Source: an uncultured Clostridia bacterium
GTDB taxonomy: Bacteria; Bacillota; Clostridia; Christensenellales; CAG-314
Assembly (NCBI GenBank): GCA_947625115.1
Contig: CANQND010000004.1
Location: 3,338 to 67,337 of the forward strand
Direction of reading: 5' to 3'
DNA: 64,000 nt
In this document: piece by piece, positions 3,852 through 34,899 of the stretch
Layout of the letters: each line of letters starts with the position of its first letter
Numbering within the stretch: position 1 is the stretch's first letter
Made by a program: the position numbers and the translations under genes
The notes under the pieces: generated by a model
The model's input: only the letters and a program-made list of their open reading frames with translations
What the model was told of the DNA's origin: nothing
Databases searched by the model: none

Positions 3852-3866
3852 GTTGAAATAGCAAAA

Positions 3867-3897: not shown

Positions 3898-3912
3898 GTT
3901 GTTTTGCTTGTT

Positions 3913-4887: not shown

Positions 4888-4888
4888 T

Positions 4889-6058: not shown

Positions 6059-6191
6059 AGTTAAGTAAAAACCCCCGCCAAAAGCGTCGGTAAACCGCAA
6101 ACGTCGTAGCGGCGAAAACGTATTGCCTCATTCGGTGCCGATGTTCGCCCGTACGACGGTTTTCAAAGTAAGTAAATTATATACTATCGAC

Positions 6192-6221
6192 AAAAAAAAA
6201 GCAACCTTTATCGGGGTTGCC
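6192..6221 (-). terminator. rho-independent terminator
   Basis: On the minus strand GGCAACC-ccgataaa-GGTTGC is followed by T9, downstream of the 6227 stop. Confidence 0.75.
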
Positions 6222-6226
6222 TGATT

Positions 6227-7360: not shown

Positions 7361-7473
7361 AGTTTTCTCCGTACACTTTTTGCGAACTAAATCAATAGTA
7401 TATTTTATGGAAATATTTTTGCCGTATGCCACTGTTGCGCGAGGGTTTTGCGCCGTTACATAAGGAGAAAACC

Positions 7474-11741: not shown

Positions 11742-11844
11742 CCTAAATGTGCCAACGCCTCTTTGTGCGGGCGATTTTTGACAGATTGAAAATTTTTATG
11801 TCGGTATAGAACAATCCTATATCGGCAAATTTTTTTACAAAATC

Positions 11845-11873
11845 TTGCCTAAAAACCGACGTTGTGCTATACT
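11845..11873 (+). promoter_or_regulatory. sigma70-type promoter (extended -10)
   Basis: TTGCCT, 17 nt, (TGc)TATACT upstream of the NifU-like/GGGtGRT pair. Confidence 0.55.
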
Positions 11874-11910
11874 GTTTTTATTGTAAAAATTTTTTTGGAG
11901 GACATTCTCT

Positions 11911-12603: not shown

Positions 12604-12616
12604 GGAGGTAGCGAAA

Positions 12617-13633: not shown

Positions 13634-13716
13634 CGGTTTAAGCGCACATTTTCGCAAACCTTTTGACTTTTTGTCGAACGTTTCGCGCAGAAATTTGCAG
13701 TTGAACAAATTTTTTC

Positions 13717-13747
13717 AAAGGGATTGCCCGCTCGGCAGTCCCTTTTT
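13717..13747 (+). terminator. rho-independent terminator (repeated module, copy 1)
   Basis: AAAGGGATTGCC-cgctc-GGCAGTCCCTTT followed by TT. A near-identical copy lies at 14816-14846. Confidence 0.75.
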
Positions 13748-13865
13748 GCTGCCTCGTAGAACAATGTCCCCGACCCATTGTCGCTCGGGCATTCACCCGA
13801 GCGGATTTTGTAGTGTGCAAGTTATGTTTTCAAAAATATTATTTCACGCACTTTCATTAAAATCG

Positions 13866-13893
13866 TTGACTTTTCAACGGGGGGGGGTATACT
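13866..13893 (+). promoter_or_regulatory. sigma70-type promoter with a G9 homopolymer in the spacer
   Basis: TTGACT (13866-13871), spacer tttcaacGGGGGGGGG (16 nt; G-run 13879-13887), TATACT (13888-13893). Confidence 0.6.
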
Positions 13894-13946
13894 GTCTTTA
13901 ACCGTGAGTTCAGGAGCTTACGGAATATTCTTACGGAGAAAAAGAT

Positions 13947-14792
13947 ATGAAGAAAGTATGTAAAATTGTTGCCGTAGCGATAGCGGTAATATTTGTTTTG
14001 GGTATTGTTGCGGCGTGCGGCAAGACTGTAGAAGTGGAGAGCGTAACTCTGGACAAGACGGCAGTGACATTGGACGTAGGCGCAAGCACTCGTCTTACCG
14101 CCACCGTTGCGCCGAGCGACGCAACGAACAAGACGGTAACTTGGAGCAGTTCCGACGCCTCTGTTGCAACCGTATCTGACGGCACGGTAACGGCGGTAGC
14201 CGAGGGAACGACAACGGTAACCGCAACGGCAGGAGGCAAAAGCGCGACTTGCACGGTAACGGTCAACGTTCCCGTTGTCTACACGGTAACCGCCGACGAA
14301 TGGACGGCGGCAATAGCGGGGTTGGCTGACGCGCAAAATTTCACCCTTTTGCAAGGCGGAGCTTACATTCGTATGGCGGACGGAAGTCGTGCCGTTTACT
14401 ACTATCCCACTAAACAGCAAGAACCCTATGAACCTGCGCTGGGTGCCTATGTGGAAAAGAGCGATACAGACTACAAGGGGTATGCTTTCGACGAGGACAC
14501 GCAAAAGTGGGAATTGGACTACGACGTTACGTGGTACATAATGACGACGGTGGTAATGGAACCCGTTGCGGAAGTGTTGGGAGCAGTGGATTACTCCAAG
14601 TTGGTTTACGACGCGGAAACGCATATGTACACCTACACGGATACCGAGGGACAAAGAACGTTCAAGTTCATCTTCCAAGACAAGCAATTGTATTGGGCAA
14701 GATGGGAATACTACATTGAGTCAATGAGTACATGGGAAGAACTGAAAGATCTCGGCACGACAGTGGTGGAATCGCCTCTGCCCAAAGACTGA
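13947..14792 (+). CDS. lipoprotein with a Big_2-type bacterial Ig-like domain
   Basis: Lipobox LGIVAAC. VTLDKTAVTLDVGASTRLTATVAPSDATNKTVTWSSSDASVATVSDGTVTAVAEGTTTVTAT is a textbook Big_2 repeat. Confidence 0.8.
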   Translation: MKKVCKIVAVAIAVIFVLGIVAACGKTVEVESVTLDKTAVTLDVGASTRLTATVAPSDATNKTVTWSSSDASVATVSDGTVTAVAEGTTTVTATAGGKSATCTVTVNVPVVYTVTADEWTAAIAGLADAQNFTLLQGGAYIRMADGSRAVYYYPTKQQEPYEPALGAYVEKSDTDYKGYAFDEDTQKWELDYDVTWYIMTTVVMEPVAEVLGAVDYSKLVYDAETHMYTYTDTEGQRTFKFIFQDKQLYWARWEYYIESMSTWEELKDLGTTVVESPLPKD

Positions 14793-14815
14793 TTTGCAAT
14801 CGATAAGTTTGTTTC

Positions 14816-14846
14816 AAAGGGATTGCCCTCTCGGCAGTCCCTTTTG
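14816..14846 (+). terminator. rho-independent terminator (repeated module, copy 2)
   Basis: AAAGGGATTGCC-ctctc-GGCAGTCCCTTTT. Same stem as 13717-13747 with a different loop base. Confidence 0.75.
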
Positions 14847-14963: not shown

Positions 14964-15008
14964 CTATTTGAAAAACATTGTCGTTTTTTGCCGAATTTTG
15001 AGGTTATT

Positions 15009-19974: not shown

Positions 19975-20028
19975 TGCAAAAGCATTGACTTTTATCTGCA
20001 AATGCAATAGAATAAATATGCAAATGCA
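19975..20028. promoter_or_regulatory. three operator-like 10-bp boxes at 22-bp spacing (C-box-like)
   Basis: TGCAAAAGCA (19975-19984), TGCAAATGCA (19997-20006), TGCAAATGCA (20019-20028). The boxes overlap the + strand promoter. Confidence 0.55.
19985..20013 (+). promoter_or_regulatory. sigma70-type promoter of the methyltransferase operon
   Basis: TTGACT, 17 nt, TAGAAT. Confidence 0.55.
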
Positions 20029-20050
20029 CCAAAATAAAGTTGAAATTGCA

Positions 20051-20698
20051 ATGAAAGGTCAAACAAAATCAAAGGAACGTGTACGAGATCACGGAGAAGT
20101 TTTTACCGACGAGAGGGAAGTGAAAGCTATGTGTGATTTGGTCGGCGACGAATGTAATCGCATAGACAGTCGTTTTTTGGAGCCTGCATGCGGCGACGGC
20201 AATTTTCTTGCCGAAATTCTCACGCGAAAGCTCGCCGTCGTCAGGCGAAAATATGGCAAAAGTCCCCTCGATTACGAAAAGAACGCCGTGCTTGCCGCGT
20301 CCTCGATTTACGGCGTTGACATTCTTTTCGACAACGTGCTTGCCTGTCGTGCGCGAATGTTCGCTCTTTGGGATAAAGAATACGTTGCCGTTTGTAAAAA
20401 AGAAGTCAACAACGAAACGAGAGAAGCGGTGAAGTTTATTCTCTCGCGCAATATCGTATGCGGAAACGCTCTCACGCTCAAATGCGTAGACGAAAACGCA
20501 CATGATACCGACGAACCGATAGTTTTTTCGGAGTGGGCATTTGTTACGGGGAGTAACCTTCAACGAAGCGACTACACTTTTGCAGAGCTTTTGGAACAGG
20601 GCGAAAAGCAGGTACAGCTTTCCATTCAACTTGGCGACGAAGGCACTTTTCTCCGCAAATACGTTACACATTACAGGAGAGTACAGGAAAATGGATAA
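20051..20698 (+). CDS. methyltransferase-N-domain-like protein lacking an NPPY-type catalytic motif
   Basis: 215 aa from [19 protein letters not shown] (motif X-like), [12 protein letters not shown] (motif I), IYGVDI, IVCGNAL, then no (N/D/S)PP(Y/F/W). The stop overlaps the next start (ATGGATAA). Confidence 0.6.
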
Positions 20699-22235
20699 TA
20701 CGCTTTTTGGAAAAGTTTACAACCCCGATGTGCTATCGTGTCTTGCCAATCTCAGCAACGACGAAGTTTTCACTCCGCCCGAAATCGTTAACGAAATGCT
20801 CGATATGCTCCCGCAAGAGCTTTTTCAGAACCCCGACACGACGTTTTTGGATCCCGCATGCAAAACGGGTGTGTTTTTGAGAGAAATTGCCAAACGTCTT
20901 ATCAAGGGCTTGGAAAAGCAGTTTCCCGATTTGCAGGAACGCGTAGACCACATTTTCCATAAGCAACTGTTCGGCATTGCAATAACGGAACTTACAAGTT
21001 TGCTTTCTCGTCGCGGCGTGTATTGTAGCAAATACCCTAACGGCGAGTTTTCCGTTACTCGTTTTCGTACCGCCGACGGCAATATTCGTTATAAACGCGT
21101 TTCTCACACGTGGAAAAACGGTAAATGCGTTTTTTGCGGTGCAAGCGAAAAAGAGTATTCTCGTGGTGACGACTTGGAAACACACGCTTACGAATTTATC
21201 CACTTTGTCAAACCGGAGGAAATTTTCAATATGAAATTCGATGTCATTATAAGCAACCCGCCGTATCAGTTGAATGATGGTGGTGGTACAGGAGATAGTG
21301 CAAAACCCATATATCATTTGTTTGTGCAAAAAGCAAAAAAACTTTTGCCAAAGTATATTGTTATGATTATTCCTTCAAGGTGGATGAAAGGAGGCAAGGG
21401 TTTACAAACGTTTAGAGAAGAAATGATTGCCGATACAAGATTAAAATACATTTATGATTATGAAGATGCCAAAGAATGTTTTACGGGTTTACATATTGAT
21501 GGGGGTGTCACTTACTTCTTATGGGATAAAAATTATTGTGGCGTAGTTAATTATACATATAAACCAAAAGACGAACCTGCTTTTTTGACACGTCGATATT
21601 TATCCAACAATGTATCAGATACGGTAATTAGAGATTACAGACAGATGTCTATTATTGAAAAATCTAGTAATGGGACGCGATTTAGTAGTATCGTTTCAAC
21701 AAGGAATCCTTATGGGTTTTCCGCTGATTTATTTAATGAACCCAAACATTATCCTCATACTAATTTGTCTGAAAAATCTTTTCCTAATTCATATAAAATT
21801 TATGGTGTTAGGGGAATAAAAGGTGGTGCGCGTAGAGTAACGGGATATGTAAATTTTGACAAAAATAATGATAAAGACCATAATTTTGATAAGTTTAAGC
21901 TGTTTTTTTCTAAGGCTTTTACAACAACATCAACTGTTCCGCCAGAAGTAATTATTGCCAAACCATATGAAATATGTACTGAAACTTTTTTGCAAATAGG
22001 CGGTTTTAATTATGAAAACGAAGCTAAAAATTGTTTGTCTTATATAAAAACAAAGTTTTTTAGAGCTTTGCTGTTTTATAATAGGCATTCATTGAACATT
22101 TCCAGAGAATCTTTTAGTTTGATCCCAATGCAAGATTTCTCTAAGCCTTGGACAGACGAGGAGTTGTATGCAAAATATAATTTGACCGACGAAGAAATAG
22201 CTTTCATTGAAAGTATGATACGACCAATGGAGTAA
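20691..22235 (+). CDS. gamma-class N6-adenine DNA methyltransferase (Eco57I-family type)
   Basis: [13 protein letters not shown] (X), [12 protein letters not shown] (I), [19 protein letters not shown] (IV), and a long C-terminal putative target-recognition region ending [21 protein letters not shown]. Confidence 0.85.
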
Positions 22236-22238
22236 TTT

Positions 22239-25076
22239 ATGCCAATTGATTTTTTTCAACAGCGTCCGAAAGTTGAACCTACAATTTACGCCTATCAGCT
22301 TGTGGGCGTAAGCTCTCACGAGGGCTATTTGAAAATCGGCTACACCGATCGCGACGCGGAAACTCGTGTAAAAGAACAGACGCACACAAGCGGATTGAAA
22401 TACAAAATCGTTCTCAAAGAATCCGCAATGCGCGCAGACGGAACTTGTTTCCGCGACGGGGACGTTCACGCTTTGTTACGCCGTAAAGGTTTTCGCAGAC
22501 TTAACGAGGGCAAAGACAGAAACGAATGGTATCTTTGTACCGAAAGGGACGTTCGCGCGGCGATATTGGAACTGCGCGAGGGTATCGTTTCGGAAGAAGG
22601 GCGCGTACAAAATTTCAAAATGCGTCCCGAGCAGGTACTTGCCGTACAAAGGACGATGACCTACTTTGCACAAGCTGCAAAGGACGAGCCTAACAAAACT
22701 CCCAAATTTTTGTGGAATGCAAAAATGCGCTTCGGCAAAACTTTTGCCGCCTACGAACTTGCCAAAAAAATGGGCTTCAAGCGGGTGCTTGTTCTCACCT
22801 TTAAGCCCGCGGTGGAGTCGGCTTGGCGGGACGATCTTGTTTCGCATGTCGATTTTGAGGGGTGGCAGTTTGTTTCAAACAAAGACGCGCACGAAAAGGA
22901 CGTGAACATAGACGTAGCCTTTGCAAATTGCGAAAAATCTCACCCCATTGTGGTATTCGGTTCTTTTCAGGACCTGCTCGGTACCAACGAAAACGGCGGT
23001 ATCAAGGCAAAAAACGAGTTTATTCACACCGAAGTGTGGGACCTTGTTATTTTTGACGAATACCATTTCGGAGCTTGGCGTGAAAGTGCGAAAAAACTTT
23101 TTGAGGATCCCGACGACGAAGAAAACGCAGATTTCGACTTTGAAAACTACAAGCGTACCGAGGCAGACAACGCCTACAACGAAAGTTTTTTGCCCATATC
23201 CGCCCGTCACTATCTTTATTTGAGCGGTACGCCTTTTCGCGCGCTCAACAGCGGAGAGTTTATAGAAGATCAAATTTACAATTGGACGTATTCCGACGAG
23301 CAACGTGCCAAGGCAGAGTGGGTAGGGTCTAACAACCCGTATTTGGCTCTTCCCCGTATGGTTATGCTAACTTATCGTATTCCCGAGAGTATTCGACAGA
23401 TTGCTTTGCAGGGAGAATTTGACGAGTTTGACCTCAACGTATTTTTCTCGGCAAATGGCAAAGGCGAAGAGGCAAGGTTTGTTTACGAAAACGAAGTGCA
23501 AAAGTGGCTCGACCTTATACGCGGTTCTTATCTTCCCGCAAGCGTGGACGACTTGAAACTCGGGCAAGACAAGCGTCCTCCGATGCCCTATTCGGACGCG
23601 CGGCTTTTGGGCGTTCTTTCGCACACGTTGTGGTTTTTGCCCAATGTGGCAAGCTGTCAGGCAATGGCTAATCTTCTTCGACAAAAGCAAAACTCATTCT
23701 ATCACGGCTACAAGATCAACGTCTGCGCGGGAGCGGCGGCAGGGATAGGTTTAGACGCGCTCCGCCCTGTGCTTGCGTCGTTAGGCAACCCTCTTGAAAC
23801 TAAGACAATTACCCTCTCTTGCGGAAAACTGACAACGGGTGTGACCATACGCCCTTGGACGGGTATATTTATGTTGCGCAACTTAAAGTCGCCCGAAACG
23901 TACTTTCAGGCGGCGTTTCGCGTGCAATCTCCGTGGGAGATCACCGACGACAACGGCGACAGTAAGATAATGAAACAGGAGTGCTATATCTTCGATTTCG
24001 CTCTCGACCGCGCTTTGCGGCAGATTTCGGACTATTCTTGTCGCCTCAACGTAGAGGAGAGCAACCCCGAAAAGAAAGTTGCGGAGTTTATTTCTTTTTT
24101 GCCCGTTCTCGCTTACGACGGTTCGTCGATGAAACAAATCAATGCACAGGACGTCCTTGACATTGCAATGGCGGGTACAAGCGCGACTCTTCTCGCCAAG
24201 CGTTGGGAGTCGGCTCTGCTTGTCAATGTGGACAACGACACGCTCTCCCGTCTTTTGAATAACAAAGACGCATTGGACGCGCTTATGCGTATCGAGGGTT
24301 TTCGTTCGCTCAATTCGGATATCGAAACCATTATCAACAAGTCCGAAGTCGTGAAAAAAGCAAAACAAGACGGGCAAAATCTTTCGTCCAAGCAGAAGAA
24401 AGAACTCACCCAAGAAGAAAGAGAGTACAAGTCTATGCGCAAGCAAATTCAGGAAAAACTTATCAAATTTGCAACGCGCGTTCCGATATTTATGTACCTC
24501 ACCGACTACCGCGAACGGTCGCTCAAAGATGTTATCACGCAGTTGGAACCGGGGTTGTTCAAAAAGGTTACGGGACTCAACGTAAACGATTTCAACCTAC
24601 TTTGTTCTATCGGCGTGTTCAATGCCAGCCTTATGAACGACGCAATCTTCAAGTTCAAGCGATATGAGGATAGTTCTTTGTCCTACACGGGCATAGAAAA
24701 ACATTCTTCGGACGAAATCGGCGGTTGGGACACAGTAGTTCGCCGTGAAGAATACGAAAAATTGTTCTACAATCAACAAGCGACAATGGAGCAAACGTCG
24801 CAAGAGGTTGCCGTAACCGTTGCTTATGAACCCGAAACGGAAAGCAATGGCAATGTATCTGAGGTAAAAACAGCAGAACAAACCGACACCCCGCCGAAAG
24901 GTTTCGATTGTTCTTCGGTAGAGGTGGGGACTTATGTTTTACATGCGAAATTCGGCAAGGGCAAAGTTGTAAAGATCGACAAAGGGAGAAAGTATATAAC
25001 TATTGCGTTTTCTGTCGGAGAAAAGATGTTTGTTATGCCGAGTTGTTTTGAGTTGGGGTTCTTGAAATTGATGTAA
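22239..25076 (+). CDS. T5orf172/GIY-YIG-like nuclease domain + SF2 (ResIII-type) helicase + C-terminal PcrA/UvrD-like Tudor-like tail; putative restriction/effector subunit
   Basis: N-terminus IYAYQL..GYLKIGYTDRDAETRVKEQ...DRNEWYLC. Helicase motifs AKMRFGKT (I), DEYH (II), LSGTPF (III), QAAFRVQS (VI). C-terminus VGTYVLHAKFGKGKVVKIDKGRKYITIAFSVGEKMF. Confidence 0.75.
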   Translation: MPIDFFQQRPKVEPTIYAYQLVGVSSHEGYLKIGYTDRDAETRVKEQTHTSGLKYKIVLKESAMRADGTCFRDGDVHALLRRKGFRRLNEGKDRNEWYLCTERDVRAAILELREGIVSEEGRVQNFKMRPEQVLAVQRTMTYFAQAAKDEPNKTPKFLWNAKMRFGKTFAAYELAKKMGFKRVLVLTFKPAVESAWRDDLVSHVDFEGWQFVSNKDAHEKDVNIDVAFANCEKSHPIVVFGSFQDLLGTNENGGIKAKNEFIHTEVWDLVIFDEYHFGAWRESAKKLFEDPDDEENADFDFENYKRTEADNAYNESFLPISARHYLYLSGTPFRALNSGEFIEDQIYNWTYSDEQRAKAEWVGSNNPYLALPRMVMLTYRIPESIRQIALQGEFDEFDLNVFFSANGKGEEARFVYENEVQKWLDLIRGSYLPASVDDLKLGQDKRPPMPYSDARLLGVLSHTLWFLPNVASCQAMANLLRQKQNSFYHGYKINVCAGAAAGIGLDALRPVLASLGNPLETKTITLSCGKLTTGVTIRPWTGIFMLRNLKSPETYFQAAFRVQSPWEITDDNGDSKIMKQECYIFDFALDRALRQISDYSCRLNVEESNPEKKVAEFISFLPVLAYDGSSMKQINAQDVLDIAMAGTSATLLAKRWESALLVNVDNDTLSRLLNNKDALDALMRIEGFRSLNSDIETIINKSEVVKKAKQDGQNLSSKQKKELTQEEREYKSMRKQIQEKLIKFATRVPIFMYLTDYRERSLKDVITQLEPGLFKKVTGLNVNDFNLLCSIGVFNASLMNDAIFKFKRYEDSSLSYTGIEKHSSDEIGGWDTVVRREEYEKLFYNQQATMEQTSQEVAVTVAYEPETESNGNVSEVKTAEQTDTPPKGFDCSSVEVGTYVLHAKFGKGKVVKIDKGRKYITIAFSVGEKMFVMPSCFELGFLKLM

Positions 25077-26263: not shown

Positions 26264-27424
26264 ATGATAGTGAGATCAATAGCGATTCCGTATAATAGGA
26301 TAGAAGAAGTGGAGATGTTTGACGTAAGGTTCGGCGATTGTTTTGTTTGTTCCAACAAATATCGGTCGGCTATGCTTGTCGATTGCGGCAGTACTATTGC
26401 GTCCGCCGCCGTCAGCAAAAAATTGTCCATGTTCTATCACAAATATTTGATGATTTCTCATTTCCACAACGATCACATTTCGGGCATAAGCCAACTTGCA
26501 AATGTACATTTTAACGAAGTGTACCTGCCCAACATAATCGACCCCTGCATAATCAGATTGAGCTTTGCAACGCTTTTGATTTCCAGCAAAACATCTCCAT
26601 TGCACCAATTGGCGTTGAACTTGCTTTTGACCATACCGAACATAGTTTCTTGTTTGACTTATAAAAGCAAAATAGTGTTTTTCAAAAGGGGCGATGTCTA
26701 TTGTAATAGGTTGGACTCTTTGCGAATTTTATGGCCGAGTTTTGAAGATAACAAGGCTCGGACAATTTTGGGACAATTGGAAAACTACGATCGCCGCGAA
26801 TTGTTGCAAAGAGCATACGCCGCGGCAAGAGAGTACTTCGGAATTTTGAGGGAAAATTTAACTTCGTCAGATGGAGTTGAAATTATAGAAATCACGGACA
26901 ACAATCAAGGCCAACTGTCAAGTTTGTCGTCGATAGTGGAGTCGTTTATAAGTCGACAGGACGGAAAACTATCCGTAAGCAAATCTTTGAAAAACTCCAT
27001 TTCCGATTGGCAAAACGAGATAAGTTTGTGTTTTGACAACTTCACCGACTACAATCGCCAAAACAACGTGCTGTTTTTGGGAGATTTGCCGAAAGACATT
27101 TTTGAAAATAAATTGGTACCGTATAACGATATTCCTTTATTGCCTGCCTATCGCGCGATAAAAGTACCCCATCACGGCACAAAAAATTATTTTACCGATT
27201 TGCTTCCGCCAAGCGATTATTTGCTTATTTCCAACGGCAAAGCAAGAAAAGGTTGGGAAATCAGCGTTTACTACGGTTTGCGTTATCGCACGCGGGCGAT
27301 TTGTTGCACAAATTATCACTGTGCGTGCGAGTACGAGTTTTACAAAACAAAATGTCGGGCATGCGCAAACCCCGATACCGTATGCGGCGTGCAAAACGGC
27401 AATTCCATTGTGATAAAAATTTAA
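26264..27424 (+). CDS. ComEC-type MBL-fold metallo-hydrolase with a Cys-rich C-terminal tail
   Basis: MLVDCGS, ISHFHNDHISG (HxHxDH), VLFLGDL, KVPHHGT. C-terminus CCTNYHCACEYEFYKTKCRACANPDTVCG. AGGGAG RBS lies 7 nt upstream. The gene is AT-rich. Confidence 0.7.
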   Translation: MIVRSIAIPYNRIEEVEMFDVRFGDCFVCSNKYRSAMLVDCGSTIASAAVSKKLSMFYHKYLMISHFHNDHISGISQLANVHFNEVYLPNIIDPCIIRLSFATLLISSKTSPLHQLALNLLLTIPNIVSCLTYKSKIVFFKRGDVYCNRLDSLRILWPSFEDNKARTILGQLENYDRRELLQRAYAAAREYFGILRENLTSSDGVEIIEITDNNQGQLSSLSSIVESFISRQDGKLSVSKSLKNSISDWQNEISLCFDNFTDYNRQNNVLFLGDLPKDIFENKLVPYNDIPLLPAYRAIKVPHHGTKNYFTDLLPPSDYLLISNGKARKGWEISVYYGLRYRTRAICCTNYHCACEYEFYKTKCRACANPDTVCGVQNGNSIVIKI

Positions 27425-27738: not shown

Positions 27739-28398
27739 TTATCTAATTTGCCAAAATGCACGCACTTTTGCAAAATAGTTCATGCGCTTTTCAATTTTTG
27801 CAATTTCTTTTGGATAAAATAAATCCATTACATCACAGAGCTGTAACATCCAATTTTTTCTGCTTTGTGTTCGATCGATATTGACTATTCGCGCATTCGC
27901 AATTTGGATTTGTCCCCAACCCAACGCCCCAATAGTTAAGCAATCCCATTTTAAGTGTTCTATTGGAATAAGTCGAACAGCATCAAACTTAATCTTACCA
28001 TTTAATATCTTGTATTCGGCAAGAAGTATAACAAAGAAGTTTTTGTCATCCTCATAAAACCGCGAAAGTCTTTCCACAGATGTCAAATTGGGCATATTAA
28101 AGTCCGTGTCGCGATTATGCGTTTTTATATCTACTATAAAATAGTTTTCTTGAAAGTCCATAAATGCGACATCTGCCATTGCTCGTCTTGCAAAGCTATC
28201 GCTAAAATCTTTGATTGTTCCTTTTGGGAAACATTCACTCATCCTTTCACCTAATATTTCTTGAACAGCATCACCAACTGCGCGAGGGCTACTTATAATG
28301 CGTGCATTTTCAAAATCATTGCAAGAATTGAGTAAATCAAGTAAATTATCCTGTATGCGTTGTAATATTGTCACATCAAATAACGAAGAGTTTATCAT
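27739..28398 (-). CDS. putative type II restriction endonuclease (PD-(D/E)XK-like)
   Basis: 219 aa. ADVAF...YFIVDIKTH resembles a D...(D/E)xK core. ATGA start/stop overlap with the upstream methyltransferase. The specificity family was not recognised. Confidence 0.55.
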   Translation of the reverse strand: MINSSLFDVTILQRIQDNLLDLLNSCNDFENARIISSPRAVGDAVQEILGERMSECFPKGTIKDFSDSFARRAMADVAFMDFQENYFIVDIKTHNRDTDFNMPNLTSVERLSRFYEDDKNFFVILLAEYKILNGKIKFDAVRLIPIEHLKWDCLTIGALGWGQIQIANARIVNIDRTQSRKNWMLQLCDVMDLFYPKEIAKIEKRMNYFAKVRAFWQIR

Positions 28399-29243
28399 TT
28401 CTTTTTCTCCTTATGTTGTTGGGGTAGAGTGTTCCTTTCCCAAAATACGCCGTCAGTATAGCCTTGAATTGTTTTATCCGTTTCGGCTTGTTCTAATCGA
28501 TACTCTGCCCAAGCGCAGTAAAGAGGACTTTGTTCGATTCCGATGTAATTACGACCCAGTTTCTTTGCTACAACAGAAGTTGTACCAGAGCCTAAAAACG
28601 GATCGAGAACGACATCGCCTTTATTTGTACTTGCTAAAATCAGCTTTGCCAACAATTTTTCAGGCTTTTGCGTGGGATGCGCTGTATTTTCTGGCATAGA
28701 CCAATACGGGATTGAAATATCATCCCAAAAATTTGAAGGATAAGTATTTCTAAAATTTCCCTCTGATGTTTCTTCCCAATCTTTCGGTTTTCCTTCTACT
28801 TTGTACGGTGCAATTACTCTCCTTCTTGACATTACGTCTTGAACATTGAAAGTATAGTTGGAAGATACTGTTGCAAACCAAATATCTTCCATAGCATTTT
28901 TCCAATTTGTCAAGGCTCCGCGCCCTTTCTCTCTTTGCCAAGTAATACGATTAATAACATTAAAATACTGATTCATAACGTTACCGATTATCATGCTCGT
29001 TTTCCAATCACAACAGACATAGATTGTTGCGGTCGACTTTAAGAGAGGAATAACTTTCTCAATCCACATACAAGTATATTGAGCATAATCGGTTTCTTCT
29101 AATTTAGTAAACTTCATGCCATGGAAGTTTTTATCGAGATTGTAGCAGGGATCTGCGAAAAGCAAGTCGACAGAATTTTTAGGCAAGAAATCTAAAACCT
29201 GCATAGAATCTCCTAAAATCGTTTTATTGACGACCTGCTCCAT
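28395..29243 (-). CDS. beta-class N4/N6 DNA methyltransferase (PF01555-type)
   Basis: Order IV then I: VDLLFADPCYNL (DPPY-like), HPTQKPEKLL, VLDPFLGSGTTSVVA. Start chosen at MEQVVNKTILGDS (29243); the track TTG start at 29399 is also possible. Confidence 0.8.
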   Translation of the reverse strand: MEQVVNKTILGDSMQVLDFLPKNSVDLLFADPCYNLDKNFHGMKFTKLEETDYAQYTCMWIEKVIPLLKSTATIYVCCDWKTSMIIGNVMNQYFNVINRITWQREKGRGALTNWKNAMEDIWFATVSSNYTFNVQDVMSRRRVIAPYKVEGKPKDWEETSEGNFRNTYPSNFWDDISIPYWSMPENTAHPTQKPEKLLAKLILASTNKGDVVLDPFLGSGTTSVVAKKLGRNYIGIEQSPLYCAWAEYRLEQAETDKTIQGYTDGVFWERNTLPQQHKEKKK

Positions 29244-29469
29244 TGTGCAGGAATTAGATATAGATAGGCACCTCTCCAAATAGGTACGACCTGTTTCTAA
29301 ATCAAAATCTATCGTTTTATTTCTTTTTGCTTTCAATTTCACACACACTTTGAGGGAAAAAGATAAAAATATTATAGCATAAGATGATAGATTTATCAAG
29401 ATAAATCACGGCAAAAAAATCAAAATGGCACTTTGGCGAACGATTGAGAAAAATATTACTTAAAGGTAC

Positions 29470-29502: not shown

Positions 29503-29578
29503 TGGTGACTCCAATGGGACTCGAACCCATGTTATCGGCGTGAGAGGCCAACGTCCTAGGCCGCTAGACTATGGAGCC
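29503..29578 (-). tRNA. tRNA-Glu (anticodon CUC)
   Basis: Hand-folded 76-nt cloverleaf: acceptor GGCTCCA/TGGAGTC, anticodon stem TTGGC/GCCGA with loop CT-CTC-AC, T arm ATGGG-TTCGAGT-CCCAT, encoded CCA. Confidence 0.85.
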
Positions 29579-29707: not shown

Positions 29708-30256
29708 TTACGGTTGTAACAAAACCAAGTGGTTTATGCAGTCTGTCGAAAGGCTTTTTCGAGCAAAGTTTTCGTCCTGCAAGTAACGCTCCAAAGACGA
29801 TTTGTTCAACAGAACGGGTATGCGGTGGTGTACGGAGTTTACGGGCGGAGTGGCGGATTTCGTCAAAATAACAAATCTCAACCCGTCTTGCCGTTTGCAA
29901 AACCCCGCCATATACAGCGCGTTGCCTTTTTCGTCCGCAAAAAGACGTTGATTTTTGTCGCCGTCCCATTCGTAAAAGCCGCTGCAAGGCACAACGCACC
30001 TTTGTTGTGAAAAATCTTTTGAGAAAAAAGGTTTTTCCGTCACCGTTTCGGCGCGGGCGTTTATCACCTGCTCTTTGCCGTAGGGGCTGTCAAAGCCCCA
30101 TTTTACAAATTGCGGCAGTAAACTTTCCGCCGTGTACACGGGCGCGTACTGTTTGGGAAAAACGTCCCACCTTAGCAACGGCGGCGTAACGGCTAAATCT
30201 CTGTAAATATCCGCAATTTCGCTGTGACCCATATCCATAACGTATCTTCCGCACAT
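29708..30256 (-). CDS. SOS-response-associated peptidase (SRAP/YedK-like abasic-site sensor)
   Basis: Starts MCGRY (catalytic Cys2). INARAET, PCSGFYEW, HHRIPVLL motifs. The track start 30376 is replaced by the MCGRY start at 30256. Confidence 0.85.
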   Translation of the reverse strand: MCGRYVMDMGHSEIADIYRDLAVTPPLLRWDVFPKQYAPVYTAESLLPQFVKWGFDSPYGKEQVINARAETVTEKPFFSKDFSQQRCVVPCSGFYEWDGDKNQRLFADEKGNALYMAGFCKRQDGLRFVILTKSATPPVNSVHHRIPVLLNKSSLERYLQDENFARKSLSTDCINHLVLLQP

Positions 30257-30461
30257 AACGTTAGTGTGAGCTACAAAACGCAGGATATTCGCAAAGCGCG
30301 CTTCCGCCGCGGCGCAAGAGTGTGAGCAACGTCGGCACAGAGTTTTGTCGTCAATTTTTGTCGGCGGCAGCGGCAATGTCCTTTTTTCGGGACATAGTGT
30401 GCTGTATTATAAACACGAAGATACCTAAAAAGTGTCTATCTATGTTAAAAAGGAGAAAATT

Positions 30462-31169
30462 ATGAACGAAATCAAGCATACGCAAACGGAAACTACGGAA
30501 CGGGAAACCGTTGAGGAAAATTTTCAAAAGACATCTCCAAACGATGATAGTGTAAAAATTTATGAACAAGAGGCTTTGCGTGGATCCGCGGAAGCACAAC
30601 ACCGCCTCGGCGTATGTTACTTTTACGGCAAAGGCGTTAAGCAGAGTTATGAAAAAGCCGCAATGTGGTTTGGTAAAGCGGCGTTACAGGGACTTGCGAG
30701 TGCGCAACACAACATCGGTAGCTGTTACTTCCGCGGTTATGGAGTGGAACAAGATTATGAAAAAGCCGTATTATGGTTTGAAAAGGCGGCATTACAAGGT
30801 CTTGCGGAAGCACAACACCGCCTCGGAGTATGTTACTTTTACGGCAAAGGCGTAGAGCAGAGTTATGAAAAAGCTGCAATGTATTTTGAGAAAGCGGCGT
30901 TGCAGGGACTTGCAGATGCGCAATACAACATCGGTAGTTGTTACTTTCGCGGTTATGGAGTGGAACAAAATTATGAAAAAGCCGCAATGTGGTTTAAGGA
31001 AGCGGCGTCGCAGGGGGACGATGACGCAAAATCAACGTTGAAAAAAATGAAAGAGGACGCCGAGCAGACTTTCGATGAAGCCAAAGAGCTTTTGGAAAAA
31101 GCGGCGTCGTTAAGACACAAAATCGCGAAAAAACTATTGAAAGCGTTAGAAGAAGCAATTGGAAATTAA
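30462..31169 (+). CDS. Sel1-repeat (SLR/TPR-like) protein
   Basis: Four consecutive AxAQxxLGxCYxxGxGVxQxYxKAxxWFxKAA repeats. AGGAG RBS before the ATG at 30462. Confidence 0.85.
   Translation: MNEIKHTQTETTERETVEENFQKTSPNDDSVKIYEQEALRGSAEAQHRLGVCYFYGKGVKQSYEKAAMWFGKAALQGLASAQHNIGSCYFRGYGVEQDYEKAVLWFEKAALQGLAEAQHRLGVCYFYGKGVEQSYEKAAMYFEKAALQGLADAQYNIGSCYFRGYGVEQNYEKAAMWFKEAASQGDDDAKSTLKKMKEDAEQTFDEAKELLEKAASLRHKIAKKLLKALEEAIGN
30588..31019 (+). repeat. tandem duplication of a 216-bp unit (two Sel1 repeats each) inside the gene
   Basis: The unit starting GCGGAAGCACAACACCGCCTCGG recurs exactly 216 nt later (30588 and 30804) with high similarity by eye. Confidence 0.8.
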
Positions 31170-31187: not shown

Positions 31188-31243
31188 TTGTAAAATCGTC
31201 AGATTTGTGCTATATTGTCATTGTTCCGTTTTCGGGACAATGA
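31188..31243 (+). promoter_or_regulatory. promoter plus 11-bp inverted-repeat operator candidate upstream of the WYL gene
   Basis: TTGTAA (31188-31193), 17 nt, (TGc)TATATT (31211-31216), then TCATTGTTCCG-tttt-CGGGACAATGA (31218-31243). Confidence 0.55.
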
Positions 31244-31274
31244 TTTTGCTATCATTGACGTATAGGAAAGCGAC

Positions 31275-32270
31275 ATGGAAAATTTTGAACCTAAAAAGTT
31301 ACTAATATTGCGCATATTGGAAATTTTGACGGAGTACTCGGACGTAAATCACCGACTGCACCAAAAAGACATTATCAGTTTGTTGCGTATTGTATACGGT
31401 ATGGAGTGCGAGCGCAAGGCTGTTGCTCGAAATGTGGAATATCTTGTGCAAGCCGGTTACGATATAGTCAGCGACAAAACGGGAATGTACCTCGCTGAAA
31501 AAAAGTTTGAAACGGGCGAATTGCGATTGCTCATTGATTCTGTCGTAGCCAACCGCAACATTGGCAAACGCTATACCAAGGAGCTTGTTGAAAAGTTGGC
31601 GGCGGAAGGCGGCAAGTATTTCAAAAACTATGCCAAACACGTTGTAAATTTGGACGATTGGCGCAAAAACGACGGATACGACTATTTTTATAACATTGAG
31701 TTGTTGTGCGAGGCGATAGAAACAAAACGTCAAGCAGAGTTTTTTTACGACAGTTATGGCAAAGATCTTCAAAGACATCATCGCTCGGCGAGAAAATATC
31801 GTTCAAGTTGCTACCAACTGTTATTGAAAAACGGATTTTACTACGTTGCGGTGTGTTTTGACGGTCACGATAACCTCGCCTTTGTGCGGGTGGACAAGAT
31901 GAGCGACCTCGTTTTAATATCAAACGTTGCGCGTCCGCTTGATTCTGTGTGTGGTTGCAAGCAAGGTTTGAACATCGGCAAACTCGTCAACACGTTGCCC
32001 TACTTATACGAAGAGGAGCCTGAATACGTGGAATTTGTCACCGCTAACGGTGTTGAACATATGACGGACTATGTTGTGGATTGGTTCGGTCGCGACGTGC
32101 AGGTGACCGAATTGTCAGACGGAAATCTCAAATTTTCTCTTATGGCAAGTCCGTGGGCAATGAAGTTTTGGCTTTTGCAATTCGGAAAGCGAGTAAAAGT
32201 GTTGTCGCCGCAGTCGCTTGTTGACGAAGTAAAAGCAGAAATAGAGCAAATGGCAAAACTGTACAAATAA
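31275..32270 (+). CDS. WYL-domain transcriptional regulator (wHTH-WYL-C-terminal extension, BrxR/CapW-like layout)
   Basis: 331 aa. N-terminal wHTH-like LLILRILEILTEYSD...QKDIISLL, and a central segment (AEFFYDSYGK...YQLLLKNGFYYVAVCFDGHDNLAFVRVDKM) typical of WYL domains. Confidence 0.75.
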   Translation: MENFEPKKLLILRILEILTEYSDVNHRLHQKDIISLLRIVYGMECERKAVARNVEYLVQAGYDIVSDKTGMYLAEKKFETGELRLLIDSVVANRNIGKRYTKELVEKLAAEGGKYFKNYAKHVVNLDDWRKNDGYDYFYNIELLCEAIETKRQAEFFYDSYGKDLQRHHRSARKYRSSCYQLLLKNGFYYVAVCFDGHDNLAFVRVDKMSDLVLISNVARPLDSVCGCKQGLNIGKLVNTLPYLYEEEPEYVEFVTANGVEHMTDYVVDWFGRDVQVTELSDGNLKFSLMASPWAMKFWLLQFGKRVKVLSPQSLVDEVKAEIEQMAKLYK

Positions 32271-32295
32271 CAGTCGAAATATAATAGGACGAGAA

Positions 32296-33531
32296 ATGCT
32301 CGGTGAACTAGAAAATCTGAAAACAATCGTAAAAAGATTGCACAAATTGAATTTTGGGCAAGATGGTATCATTCACCCTGTCGATGGTGGAGCCAATTAC
32401 AACTTTGAGCGGTTTTTACAAAATGGCGGTCACAAATTTGTCGGGGAGGACCGCGCGTGCGCAACGTGCGCTCTGCCCGCATATCCGCGTACTCCGTATG
32501 TGTCGCACGGCAGTCATACAGTAGATTTTGTCGCGGCGCATTTGTACGATCCCGATACGCAAGACGTAGCAACCGCAAGCGAACGGGCGTGCTACGAATA
32601 TATTTCAAATTGGTTTGCCTTTGGCAAAGCGGTAACGCGACCTGTTTTGTTCCTTTTGGAAAACCCTGCCGACAACAACGGAAACAATTACGAAAAAGGG
32701 CAAAACCGCTCGCCCTCTGTCGATTGGTATTGGTTGGACAGGGGCTACAAGGATAAAATAGAAAACTACGACAGTAAATTCATAATGCCCGCAGAATACG
32801 GCAAAATGATTTTCGCCGTCATAAACACTTTTCACCTTGCCAACGCCTATGCGACCAACACTGTCAAATGCGGCGTGTGCAATGCCGACGGAAGCTATGC
32901 AACTACAAAAAATCGCGAAAAATACAGCAGAAACACAATAAAACAATGTGAAACAAAGTGGTTGAAAGAGGAAATTTCGGCACTTTGTCAACAGGAAAAG
33001 AATTTAGTCGTTTTAGCCTTTGGCAACAATGCGTACAGTAATTTCAAGCAAATACTGACAAAAGAAAACGGCAAACTTTATTGTTATGCGTGTGGAGGAA
33101 AAATTGCCGTAACGCTTGTCAAGTTTCGCCATCCAAGTCACGCACACTTGTACTGCAAAGAACAAATCTGCAATACGGTAAATCTTATACTTAATCAAAA
33201 GTCGAGTATTCCGTATGATAACGGATATAGTAACGGGTACACGTGGTGCGTGGAGTACAGCGACAAGTACCCCGATGGAACAATTGTTTTGAGAATAGGC
33301 AATGCCGACGTCGAGTATAAATCGCAATATGTTCGGTACGCACTGAAAAGCGGGGAGTGTGACTGTTGGCGAGGGACAAAATCCAATAACGCCAACGAAA
33401 AGGTGTTTGAACTCGTAAATTTTAATGAACCTGACGAAAAATTTAACGGACTTGACGGAAAGATATTGTATATGTTTCGTCAATTGGTCATTTCGGTAAA
33501 CAAAATTTTGTTTGGCAACGAGCGTTCGTAA
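32296..33531 (+). CDS. UDG-superfamily (family-4-like, 4-Cys Fe-S) protein with N- and C-terminal extensions
   Basis: Motif order CATC ... VLFLLENPAD ... YATNTVKC ... IKQCETKWLKEEI ... LVVLAFGNNA ... VKFRHPSH parallels family-4 UDGs. It starts 25 nt after the WYL gene. Confidence 0.6.
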   Translation: MLGELENLKTIVKRLHKLNFGQDGIIHPVDGGANYNFERFLQNGGHKFVGEDRACATCALPAYPRTPYVSHGSHTVDFVAAHLYDPDTQDVATASERACYEYISNWFAFGKAVTRPVLFLLENPADNNGNNYEKGQNRSPSVDWYWLDRGYKDKIENYDSKFIMPAEYGKMIFAVINTFHLANAYATNTVKCGVCNADGSYATTKNREKYSRNTIKQCETKWLKEEISALCQQEKNLVVLAFGNNAYSNFKQILTKENGKLYCYACGGKIAVTLVKFRHPSHAHLYCKEQICNTVNLILNQKSSIPYDNGYSNGYTWCVEYSDKYPDGTIVLRIGNADVEYKSQYVRYALKSGECDCWRGTKSNNANEKVFELVNFNEPDEKFNGLDGKILYMFRQLVISVNKILFGNERS

Positions 33532-33604
33532 CGGCACGTCCTTTTTTCGGTACAAACTATTTGTTAAAATATTCTTCGGAGAGAGAACTTCGGGGGATTT
33601 TTTT

Positions 33605-34018
33605 ATGTCAAGTTTTGAAGAGTTGAGTACAAAAACCAAAGTTATCGTAATTGCTGTGAGCATTGTGGCGTTTGCCGTGATATTTTTCGTTGTATCGGCG
33701 ATTGTGGGCGGCGGCGAAAAGGTCGAACAGCTGACGGAACCGACTCTTTCAGTAAATTACGACGCGTTGGGCTTTTATCCAACGGTAACGGTGCAGGTGC
33801 AGAACGTGACGAACAGCACAATTACCGTGCAAATGCGGTGTACCATATATGCTTCCGACGGCAGCGTTACAGACAATATTTCATCGAATATAGTTCGATT
33901 GGCTCCCAACGAAAAAACTACGCTCGTTGCGCAAAGCGTAGTTGCCATAAACGCGTCGCTCTATTCATATAAGTGTGCGTCGTTCGGCAATTTGCAATAT
34001 GTATATTTCAAGTATTAG
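33605..34018 (+). CDS. single-pass membrane protein with an extracytoplasmic beta-rich domain, unknown function
   Basis: MSSFEELSTKTKVIVIAVSIVAFAVIFFVVSAIV TM helix, then ~95 aa rich in T/V/N. ATG 33605 lies within the longer track ORF. Confidence 0.55.
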   Translation: MSSFEELSTKTKVIVIAVSIVAFAVIFFVVSAIVGGGEKVEQLTEPTLSVNYDALGFYPTVTVQVQNVTNSTITVQMRCTIYASDGSVTDNISSNIVRLAPNEKTTLVAQSVVAINASLYSYKCASFGNLQYVYFKY

Positions 34019-34029
34019 GAATATGGGGT

Positions 34030-34899
34030 ATGAAAATCACAAAAATCGCTTTGAAAAACATAGGTAAAACAGCGCGATTCAAAACAACGCTTGCAGACGG
34101 CTGCAATGTTTTGTCTGCAAATAAAGACGTTTTCAATGCGTTGTGCTATTTTGCTCAATCGTGGACAAACAGACTTTACGCCCGAGAATTTTTGCAAAGT
34201 TTTTCGGAAAAATCTGCGTTTGAGTTGGAACTTGCCGACGGCGATAACGCATTTTCCGTAGCATATGCAATGCGCGAGGGAAATATTGTTTCGTCTGTTT
34301 GCCTTAACGGCACTCAATTGCCTCGTGACAGCGTAGAATTGGCGTATGCTTTTGACGAATACCTGTTTCCTCACGAAAATGCGCAATATTCTTTCTTTGA
34401 CGGCACTATCTATTTTGATTACGTACAAAAACGACAAGATCTGTATTTACAAGCCGTCTTGAACGATGTGCGGGAGATGTTGACATCACGGGGCAGGATT
34501 CCCACAGAGGAAGAACTGCTCGGTTTTGCCTCGACCGAACTGCCTGACGGAAAGAGCAGTTACGCTATGTACAAATTTATCAAGCAATATCTGCATACGG
34601 CTCAACCTGTTCTGTTTACAACGGAAAGCGGAAGCGCGTCCTTTGACGGCGCAAAATTTACCGTAAACGATGAGGTTTTGAACTTGGACGAGCCGTGGAA
34701 TCGCGCGTTGTTGCCCCAAGCAGATGAGCAACTTGTGCGGTTTTGCTTTGCCAACAGAATGTTCCGTGCCGAGTGTCGAGAGAAAGGGTTCCGAAGTAAC
34801 TTCCCCGTGGTGATGTGGAACCTAACTCATCGTCAAGCGCAAGCGGTGCAAAACAATGTGAATGATGTGCAGTTGTTGCTCTTCACCTCGTCCGAGTAG
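34030..34899 (+). CDS. SMC/RecF/ABC-head-like protein with degenerate Walker A and B motifs, unknown function
   Basis: MKITKIALKNIGKTARFKTTLADGCNVLSANKD (P-loop GxxGxGKS replaced), LNGTQLPRD, C-terminal PVVMWNLTH...VQLLLFTS in place of xxxxDE...QxIxxTH. It starts 11 nt after the previous stop. Confidence 0.45.
   Translation: MKITKIALKNIGKTARFKTTLADGCNVLSANKDVFNALCYFAQSWTNRLYAREFLQSFSEKSAFELELADGDNAFSVAYAMREGNIVSSVCLNGTQLPRDSVELAYAFDEYLFPHENAQYSFFDGTIYFDYVQKRQDLYLQAVLNDVREMLTSRGRIPTEEELLGFASTELPDGKSSYAMYKFIKQYLHTAQPVLFTTESGSASFDGAKFTVNDEVLNLDEPWNRALLPQADEQLVRFCFANRMFRAECREKGFRSNFPVVMWNLTHRQAQAVQNNVNDVQLLLFTSSE

Follow-up and report, generated by a model that had tools for sequence, protein, structure and literature searches.

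Immunity based on DNA glycosylases was first shown in 2024 with Brig1 (PMC11078745) and has since been extended to the Brig2, Brig3 and Dag families. Brig1 acts on alpha-glucosyl-5-hydroxymethylcytosine (alpha-glucosyl-hmC), relies on Glu147 for recognition of the cytosine derivative and has as its nearest structure a uracil-DNA glycosylase (UDG) of family 4 (PMC11078745). Brig2 acts on 5-substituted uracils or thymidine derivatives (bioRxiv 10.1101/2025.10.29.685425), and Brig3 acts on 5-hydroxymethylcytosine (5hmC) together with the deglucosylase BapA (bioRxiv 10.64898/2026.02.25.707755). Here we describe a locus in a 64,000-nucleotide stretch of DNA from an uncultured Clostridia bacterium (the window; GenBank assembly GCA_947625115.1, contig CANQND010000004.1, positions 3,338 to 67,337), in which the gene for a divergent UDG-superfamily protein directly follows the gene for a WYL-domain transcription regulator. 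A preliminary description of this DNA had proposed the pair as a candidate glycosylase-based defence module.

WYL regulators such as BrxR and CapW precede many defence systems. A glycosylase as an immune effector and a WYL-gated defence operon are each known principles. Their combination is not: it would unite a conserved iron-sulfur (Fe-S) branch, insertions peculiar to its active site, a C-terminal domain that varies and a dedicated control by WYL. We estimate a probability of about 0.5 for the following reading: the locus is a mobile module under WYL control, and its effector is a Brig-like defence glycosylase that is kept repressed and probably attacks bases of the uracil type. This reading draws on fold and homology, on the conservation of catalytic and cysteine residues, on the WYL link, on mobility and on the restriction–modification (R-M) island in which the genes lie. 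The accessory context and the WYL link on which the preliminary description had built were both found, and the defence role itself is read from that context.

A predicted UDG-superfamily protein closest to family 4

Both open reading frames (ORFs) lie where the preliminary description had placed them, on the + strand and 25 nt apart. The first (31275..32270) starts with ATG and encodes the 331-aa regulator. The second (32296..33531), also with an ATG start, encodes a 411-aa protein that consists of an N-terminal helix, a CxxC motif, a family-specific insertion, a UDG core and a variable C-terminal domain. We found 22 relatives of this protein among 5.8 billion proteins, three of them at 60–98% identity and the others at about 30%. 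When the sequences in the alignment of these relatives (A1) were scanned singly, 17 of the 23 matched the Pfam UDG family PF03167 (best E 9.1e-8), and a precomputed PF03167 annotation is present on six relatives. Searches of PDB sequences with the single 411-aa protein gave no match, and the A1 family profile found nothing in the PDB at E <= 10 (hmmsearch). An AlphaFold2 (AF2) model of the protein, with a predicted local distance difference test score (pLDDT) of 71 and a predicted TM-score (pTM) of 0.72, was then compared with the PDB by Foldseek. All of the top 50 matches listed are UDG-superfamily structures (best E 7.3e-4, probability 0.99), including Geobacter SMUG1 (5H98, E 7e-4), human and Xenopus SMUG1, UdgX (6AIL, E 6e-3), SMUG2, UNG and MUG. 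A fold match in BFVD, to one unnamed 449-aa viral protein (E 9e-5, TM-score 0.2), was set aside as not informative.

Profile comparisons by hhalign point to family 4 within this superfamily. As references we used the family-4 enzymes of Thermotoga (a sequence identical to PDB 1L9G), Thermus (1UI0) and Sulfolobus (4ZBX), with UdgX for comparison. The A1 profile matched the family-4 profile at 78% probability (E 1.7e-5). A deep profile search returned 297 clusters (E <= 1e-3) among 1.84 billion representatives, and the 145-member alignment built from it matched the family-4 profile at 94.9% probability over 137 columns (E 4.5e-8). Against single sequences, the 145-member profile matched the Thermotoga enzyme at E 5.8e-6 and the Sulfolobus enzyme at E 3.6e-5; the values were 0.006 for UdgX, 0.056 for E. 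coli Ung (family 1) and 0.046 for E. coli Mug (family 2), the last two being control sequences verified against the PDB. PF03167 in the relatives, the exclusively UDG-superfamily structures among the fold matches listed and the hhalign results agree with the preliminary description, which had recognised a family-4-like UDG from its motifs. These profiles and the predicted model place the 411-aa protein in the UDG superfamily, closest to the [4Fe-4S] enzymes of family 4. Strict membership of family 4 fails, as both glycines of the GE(A/G)PG motif are replaced and no curated family model matches; we therefore filed the protein and its relatives as a separate family within the Fe-S branch.

The motifs quoted in the preliminary description are all present, in the order given there, and fall on conserved positions of the 145-member alignment; in A1 each of them is invariant or close to it. 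The equivalent of motif A, PVLFLLENPA (32641..32670, + strand), aligns by hhalign with IVFVGE46-G-P48 of the Thermotoga enzyme, such that E122 corresponds to E46 and P124 to P48. E122 is found in 136 of the 145 members and P124 in 143, whereas N123 is found in only 111 (S in 20, T in 7). The conserved part is therefore E-x-P, as in family 4, and the earlier comparison of the N-P pair with MUG and SMUG did not hold. As a catalytic motif of the MUG/SMUG type we rejected it, given that N123 is S or T in 27/145 members with E122 kept, and that Mug and Ung gave profile matches no better than noise. The members at two loci of other genomes (L015 and L027) have ETPS in place of ENPS. (Loci with members of the UDG-like family in other genomes are labelled L001–L030.)

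Further along the core, LANAYATNTVKCG (32836..32874, + strand) aligns by hhalign with the segment of family 4 that holds the uracil-contacting asparagine and the third Fe-S ligand. N188 corresponds to N85 of the Thermotoga enzyme and N82 of the S. tokodaii enzyme, which contacts uracil (PMC11078745), and C192 corresponds to Thermotoga C89. T187, K191 and C192 are each conserved in 144/145 members and N188 in 122/145, with D in 20. C218 (32947..32949, + strand; 142/145) aligns with C105, the fourth Fe-S ligand of the Thermotoga enzyme, the AFG of the window protein aligns with the ALG of family 4, and H279-P-S (33130..33138, + strand) aligns with motif B, H161-P-S, with H279 and P280 conserved in 130–131 of 131 ungapped members. 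The putative first ligand pair, C55-x2-C58 (32458..32469, + strand), is conserved in 140/145 (C55) and 139/145 (C58) members, and falls on Thermotoga C18xxC21 only at relaxed thresholds of the hhalign maximum-accuracy (MAC) alignment; the N-terminal sub-profile alone gives E 0.031. Thus, of the four cysteines previously assigned to [4Fe-4S] ligand positions, C192 and C218 are aligned as proposed, and C55 and C58, also conserved, fall on ligands only in the relaxed alignment.

Other features set the family apart. An insertion of about 40 residues between the CxxC pair and motif A, without an equivalent in family 4, contains the family-specific motif SHGSHxxD (32503..32526, + strand), in which H71, G72 and D77 are near-invariant. 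A second family-specific insertion, P-x3-WYW, lies downstream of motif A, and the N-terminal helix is a feature of the window family that is absent from family 4. Residues ~301–411 form a C-terminal domain of about 110 residues (33196..33528, + strand), which by secondary structure combines a beta-sheet with a long helix and is the fastest-diverging part of the protein. This domain is confined to forms of roughly 430 aa, about half of the family, which thus has two length classes.

One alternative reading is that the protein is a toxin used in abortive infection, which upon release of the WYL regulator would attack normal bases or form UdgX-like covalent DNA adducts in host and phage DNA alike, and which would be tightly repressed because it is toxic. 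The insertion with invariant H71/G72/D77 and the WYW motif near the pocket could alter specificity, UdgX is among the structural matches, and the association with a dedicated repressor-type regulator recurs across phyla (see below). Single substitutions convert UNG to cytotoxic thymine or cytosine glycosylases, which also counts for such a toxin. However, L015 and L027 have copies without a regulator beside housekeeping genes, which speaks against a protein that is strongly toxic in itself; UdgX gives a poor profile match; and no immunity or antitoxin gene is conserved family-wide. We consider a toxin of this kind distinctly improbable.

Linkage to WYL regulators and movement of a four-gene block

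The regulator matches the Pfam WCX model (E 5.9e-10, residues 265–327), the Pfam WYL model just under its curated cut-off (E 4.2e-4, residues 141–212) and the PADLOC WYL model (E 1.5e-20). A winged helix-turn-helix (wHTH) was read by eye at about residues 8–75, without a Pfam call, and its WYL relatives in L020 and L021 match HTH_11, that of L021 also HTH_DeoR. The layout of wHTH, WYL and C-terminal extension noted previously is thus upheld, by models for its second and third parts. The best phmmer match of the regulator in the PDB was the WCX region of PafC at E 0.31, which is not significant.

The survey of other genomes for WYL co-occurrence gave a link in 7 of about 16 lineages, including three divergent regulator types. 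Orthologues of the window-type regulator (phmmer E 1e-52 to 1e-62) immediately precede the UDG-like gene in L001/L011, L012/L024, L005/L006 and L014, and lie one or two genes upstream in L008/L009/L028/L029. In L020, L021 and L022, the adjacent or operon WYL proteins are recognised by Pfam and were missed by the profile of the window-type regulator: in L021 (Ignavibacteriota) the WYL gene is directly upstream of the UDG-like gene, in L022 (Prolixibacteraceae) an operon runs WYL, RNase_T, TPR and UDG-like gene, and in L020 (Phycisphaerae) the WYL gene is a convergent neighbour. We regard the WYL link as strong and repeatedly evolved, because genomes usually hold few WYL genes, a background rate that is our own inference.

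The family itself is rare. A scan of 185,579 species, with one genome each, found 13 loci, in gut and rumen Clostridia metagenome-assembled genomes (MAGs), Prevotella, Flammeovirgaceae, Chitinophaga, Prolixibacteraceae, other Bacteroidota, a Phycisphaerae (Planctomycetota) and an Ignavibacteriota. The family as a whole is distributed patchily over five phyla. Searches of 50,697 phage records, 72,556 plasmid records and PHROGs turned up no relative. The combination of rarity and patchiness argues that this is not a housekeeping repair enzyme.

In the lineage of the window, the conserved unit is larger than the two genes first described. Similarity to L001 extends from 31213, the start of the dyad at the promoter, to 34901 (tblastx), and this mobile unit comprises four genes, namely those of the regulator and the UDG-like enzyme followed by genes for a membrane protein of 137 aa and a protein of 289 aa. 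The 137-aa protein (33605..34018, + strand) combines a single N-terminal membrane helix with an FxLYD-like beta domain (NCBIfam FxLYD 1.7e-4, below the cut-off), and its gene is syntenic in L001, L012 and L024. The 289-aa protein (34030..34899, + strand) is confined to the window's lineage, with 4 homologues only in 5.8 billion proteins, every one inside the same block. Searches of Pfam, PADLOC and PDB sequences with it gave no match, and its AF2 model is poor (pLDDT 47). In a Foldseek search of the PDB with this model, almost all of the top ~30 matches were ABC ATPase heads of the Rad50/SbcC/RecF/SMC type (best E 1.8e-4). The N-terminal strand MKITKIALKNIGK is consistent with such a head, and the Walker A motif appears degenerate by eye. 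The protein may therefore possibly have a degenerate Rad50/RecF/SMC-like ABC fold, which we take as a lead only.

The block lies between unrelated neighbours in three loci of this lineage: Sel1, SRAP, tRNA and R-M genes in the window, MoxR-vWA and Tpt1 in L001, and ArdC with a transposase in L024. It thus moves between unrelated flanks. All four genes are under purifying selection, as judged by dN/dS against L001, with dS saturated at 1.2–1.4. The regulator (85% identity to L001/L024, dN/dS 0.077) and the membrane protein (81–85%, dN/dS 0.063) are well conserved, and the UDG-like enzyme (59–61%, dN/dS 0.18) and the 289-aa protein (63–68%, dN/dS 0.17) diverge about three times faster. Within the enzyme, identity is 45–50% in the C-terminal domain versus 60–68% for the remainder. 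A single-frame tblastx match across 33595–34896 raised the idea of one long gene, recoded or with in-frame stops; ordinary stops occur there in all three relatives, and we dismissed the match as a multi-frame artefact of similar DNA.

The DNA upstream of the regulator gene contains a promoter-like sequence, TTGTAA-17-(TG)TATATT (31188..31216, + strand), with 9/12 matches and a TG extension, and L001 has TTGCGA-17-TATAAT at the corresponding place. The promoter of the preliminary description is thus present in sequence and only plausible in function, as promoter-like matches in the region number 11 versus 7.6 +/- 2.7 in shuffles, a difference that is not significant. An inverted repeat, TCATTGTTCCG-TTTT-CGGGACAATGA (31218..31243), starts 1 nt past the -10 box and could be an operator or a leader hairpin. 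Its 11-nt arms (31218–31228 and 31233–31243) are 91% complementary, and it folds as a 12-bp stem (-17.6 kcal/mol, z -3.8 versus shuffles). The pattern TGTNCC-N6-GGNACA occurs once in the window, with 0.03 expected. L001 has TGTACCG-TTTT-CGGTACA at the same position, two nt after the TATAAT box, so that the architecture is kept with a change on both arms. The hairpin of the window is followed by TTTT and was also scored as terminator-like; that of L001 was not. The repeat that the preliminary description had proposed as an operator is therefore real, is found in two of three close lineages only and is terminator-like in the window. A candidate operator would be its most economical reading from sequence, though not a universal one. 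A weak terminator-like hairpin with a run of seven T (33571..33598, + strand; -12.7 kcal/mol, z -1.9) separates the UDG-like gene from the next gene, and transcription may continue past it into the last two genes. Similar 17-mers, GTCC(T/G)TTTT(T)CGG(G/T)ACA, occur at 30378–30394, 31223–31239 and 33538–33554, each intergenic and before a gene of the neighbourhood. The second is the core of the inverted repeat, and the other two are probably chance occurrences. As a shared operator the three were rejected, since sites 1 and 3 are poor palindromes and their similarity is about that expected by chance in T-rich DNA.

Proposed function and its alternatives

In the reading that we favour, the WYL-WCX protein would bind its own promoter, possibly at the dyad 31218–31243 overlapping the transcription start, and keep expression of the operon low until an infection or DNA-damage signal releases it. 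Other WYL regulators respond to single-stranded DNA (ssDNA) or to a nucleic-acid-derived ligand. The Fe-S glycosylase would then flip out and excise a base from the invading DNA, leaving abasic sites that block replication, as with Brig1, Brig2 and Brig3. The likeliest substrates would be deoxyuridine (dU), 5-hydroxymethyl-U (hmU) and hypermodified thymidines of phage DNA; a uracil-type substrate is favoured because N188, the asparagine that reads the O4/N3 face in family 4, is kept. Targeting may be tuned by the C-terminal domain, which evolves fast, and by the 289-aa partner specific to this lineage. All of the following are predicted properties in this scheme: the Fe-S cluster, activity as a glycosylase, its substrate, a repressor role of the WYL protein and protection against phages. 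In a broader proposal, which we find possible though rather doubtful, the family would represent an unrecognised anti-phage system of several phyla: a WYL-gated glycosylase of Fe-S UDG fold, with an active-site insertion of its own (H71/G72/D77, WYW), would hit uracil-type phage bases (dU, hmU, hypermodified T) or, in abortive infection after de-repression, ordinary DNA, with the C-terminal domain and the degenerate Rad50/RecF-like partner of the window's lineage serving as specificity or sensing modules.

A defence or mobile context was found at the window, L016, L019, L024 and L021, and not at L015, L018 and L027. In L016, from a Prevotella MAG, the UDG-like gene lies between type I hsdR and hsdM (2812–7426), overlapping hsdR by 8 nt and without a WYL gene; this hsdR is truncated by a DDE transposase. 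The preliminary description had named mostly housekeeping neighbourhoods as an outcome that would speak for an ordinary repair enzyme. The survey gave a mixed picture, with R-M or mobile contexts at the five loci above and several members among housekeeping genes or in the replication modules of integrative elements.

Several observations, on the protein, on its regulation and on its neighbourhoods, weigh against a defence glycosylase. The 411-aa protein has no match in Pfam, PADLOC, NCBIfam or PHROGs. Its AF2 model is of moderate quality (pLDDT 71), with low TM-scores to UDGs (0.25–0.46), which we ascribe to the insertions and the extra domain. The dyad is absent from L012/L024, where a segment of about 36 nt, bracketed by TGCTAT repeats in the window, is missing. 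The WYL regulators PafBC and DriD run DNA-damage regulons. At L019 the UDG-like gene stands just after a Dcm-type C5-methylase gene (Dcm-EcoRII) and before a transposase gene, without a WYL gene, where it could serve in mismatch repair of the Vsr/Mig type. At L015, L027 and L018 the flanking genes are housekeeping or metabolic and a regulator is absent, and the recurring cassette of the largest clade, described below, could equally be an element's own module for DNA metabolism.

The contexts of L019, L015, L027 and L018 lend themselves to another explanation, a damage-inducible repair glycosylase of mobile elements, in which a PafBC/DriD-like WYL protein would sense ssDNA and induce uracil or mismatch repair in the host or element genome, with nucleases or phosphoesterases co-induced in some lineages, or with a Vsr/Mig-like function in R-M settings. 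Retention of the uracil-contacting asparagine and of family-4-like catalytic motifs speaks for such an enzyme. DNA-processing partners in operons elsewhere (the PD-(D/E)XK protein DUF2779, an RNase_T exonuclease and PDDEXK_4) and the abasic-site-shielding SRAP gene 0.9 kb upstream in the window also fit, although SRAP does not accompany the block in L001, L012 or L024. Extreme rarity and patchiness are, however, unlike a general repair enzyme, as are the movement of the cassette between unrelated flanks and an effector that diverges three times faster than its regulator, and the L016 copy lies inside a type I R-M operon of N6-adenine type, where repair of deamination makes no sense. We judge a repair role unlikely.

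In the largest, Clostridia-type clade, a cassette recurs that consists of genes for PAD_porph, WYL, DUF2779, the UDG-like protein, Metallophos and a reverse transcriptase, with the Metallophos start overlapping the UDG-like stop. It lies near genes for Toprim, DnaB_C, an SNF2-like helicase and an integrase. These neighbours, a short PolIII-alpha with a second UDG and the presence of ArdC near the block in L024 suggest a further possibility, that the protein serves the replication of integrative elements or counter-defence: it would clean uracil or foreign modifications from the element's DNA or counter host defence, with the WYL protein coupling it to induction of the element. Against this, the phage and plasmid records and PHROGs hold no relative, no replication genes surround the block in the window, the polymerase of L005 already has a separate UDG next to it, and the Bacteroidota, Ignavibacteriota and Phycisphaerae copies lie outside such elements. 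A role of this kind appears improbable to us, and the repressed defence glycosylase is the reading that we retain.

Side features of the cassette and of related loci

The cassette is found in L008 (4692–12251), L028 (4065–11048) and L029/L030; PAD_porph is a deiminase and DUF2779 a PD-(D/E)XK protein, for which a PDB search gave no match. The reverse transcriptase, of about 430–530 aa, matches RVT_1 only. In L029 an upstream 185-aa protein has a faint match to purine-DNA glycosylases. We also considered whether the Rad50-like 289-aa protein and the Metallophos partner found elsewhere are pieces of a Mre11–Rad50 pair, and discarded this idea, as the Metallophos protein is ApaH/lambda-phosphatase-like and not Mre11/SbcD-like.

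L005 encodes a second divergent UDG-like protein (258 aa, with the motif C-L-T-N-Y-Y-K-C) paired with a 791-aa PHP/PolIII-alpha polymerase (11372–14580, - strand). The pair is convergent to the WYL and UDG-like genes, within an integrative element. A MoxR-type AAA ATPase and a DUF2201/vWA protein are encoded upstream of the WYL/UDG-like pair both in L001 (1254–4260) and in L005 (4875–7464), two lineages that are only about 30% identical; the vWA-MoxR genes are possibly a separate conflict system in the same hotspot.

The genomic island of the window

Two R-M systems and a gene for an LmuA-like metallo-beta-lactamase (MBL)-fold protein lie within 12 kb in the window. The type II R-M system (27739–29399; Pfam, PADLOC) is next to a tRNA-Glu gene (29503–29578), and a split type IIG-like R-M and helicase set occupies 19985–25076. 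In the latter, the methylase ORFs 19985–20698 (MmeI-type N-terminus) and 20541–22235 (Eco57I-type) overlap and look like a frameshifted single gene, and the 945-aa protein encoded next, with T5orf172 (GIY-YIG-like) and ResIII helicase domains, corresponds to the middle part of a model for type IIG enzymes. The MBL-fold protein (386 aa, 26264–27424) is encoded between an esterase gene and the type II R-M system; its N-terminus matches the PADLOC LmuA model (1.9e-11) and also a DRT-associated MBL model. GC content is 0.43–0.45 in the context of the two genes and 0.34–0.46 over the island stretch, versus 0.51–0.53 in the downstream comEC/holA. These findings bear out the earlier picture of lower-GC accessory DNA beside a tRNA and R-M genes. 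The PADLOC run on the window matched the WYL model and the R-M neighbours, with no model for the UDG-like protein. The tRNA-Glu gene was examined as the integration site of the block and rejected, as there is no att-like duplicate of the tRNA end and the block is on the 5' side of the tRNA.

Between the tRNA and the block lie two further genes. The SRAP gene (29708–30376, - strand; Pfam 2.9e-35), of the YedK/HMCES type, is a suggestive neighbour for an enzyme that would make abasic sites, with the limited conservation noted above. A Sel1-repeat gene (30432–31169) consists of 108-nt units in tandem (repeat family D1). In L012/L024, too, the block comes after a related Sel1 gene, and L028 has one nearby.

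Two features lie farther upstream. A 969-aa ORF (14988–17897) without a Pfam or PADLOC match has internal direct repeats that encode Cys/His-rich units (families D2 and D3). A 54-nt element with a GC-rich hairpin and a T-run occurs twice (13693–13746 and 14792–14845; 85% identical), flanking a gene with a Big_2 domain (13947–14792), and the two copies are probably duplicated terminators.

Comparison with known systems

PADLOC 2.0, NCBIfam and PHROGs hold no model for the UDG-like family, and full-text literature searches that combined WYL, glycosylase and defence returned no description. The architecture is thus not a described system in the databases and literature searched, as the preliminary description had supposed. 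The published accounts of Brig and Dag that we searched mention neither a Fe-S cluster of these enzymes nor a dedicated regulator. If the module is active in defence, a branch of the UDG superfamily that bears a redox cofactor would join the immune repertoire, as a natural glycosylase gated by a signal through WYL control and probably with a new base specificity, which would be useful for detecting or mapping pyrimidines that carry modifications. Most of the family is from Clostridia of the gut and rumen and from Bacteroidota, groups with little-known phages and DNA modifications. Should the protein instead be a damage-inducible repair enzyme of mobile elements, WYL damage responses would be extended beyond Actinobacteria and Caulobacter.

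Among glycosylases of other families, those of family 4 (TM0511, 1L9G; Thermus UDGA, 1UI0; S. tokodaii, 4ZBX/4ZBY) are the most similar. They share the UDG alpha/beta fold and the order of motifs; the E-x-P of motif A, N-x-x-K-C, the fourth cysteine and H-P-S/A align; and the four conserved cysteines follow the C-x2-C ... C ... C pattern of [4Fe-4S] ligands, the first pair falling on ligands only in the relaxed alignment. By contrast, identity to the window protein family is only about 17–18%, the flanking glycines of GE(A/G)PG are replaced (LENPS/A/G), and the window family is rare, mobile and regulator-linked, whereas family 4 is housekeeping. SMUG1 (family 3) is the best Foldseek match of the window protein, but lacks a Fe-S cluster and contains the motif GMNPG. 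UdgX differs by its weak profile match (E 0.006), and a counterpart of its covalent-trap histidine loop was not identified in the window protein.

With BrxR/CapW and PafBC/DriD, the window regulator shares the HTH-WYL-WCX layout, a position directly upstream of and co-oriented with its presumed target genes, and, for two of three close lineages, a dyad at the promoter of its own gene. By sequence, none of the solved WYL proteins matched it significantly in the phmmer search of the PDB.

Similar to the window protein, Brig1, Brig2 and Brig3 belong to the UDG superfamily, and their genes lie in defence islands or mobile DNA. Small operons with accessory genes (a three-gene operon for Brig1, BapA for Brig3) and an A/T-rich accessory context are further points in common. 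No Brig entry is among the top 50 PDB fold matches listed, and the invariant motifs of the window family were not found in the available part of the supplementary text of the Brig1 and Dag/Brig2 papers. The term 'WYL' is absent from the Brig1 paper, which speaks of a Fe-S cluster for no enzyme but the S. tokodaii reference (PMC11078745), and the descriptions of Brig1 and Brig3 are otherwise without 'iron-sulfur', 'Fe-S', 'iron' or 'regulator'. Compared by description, Brig1 has Glu147 where the window family keeps the uracil-type asparagine. This difference leads us to expect a different base for the window family, more like the thymidine derivatives on which Brig2 acts.

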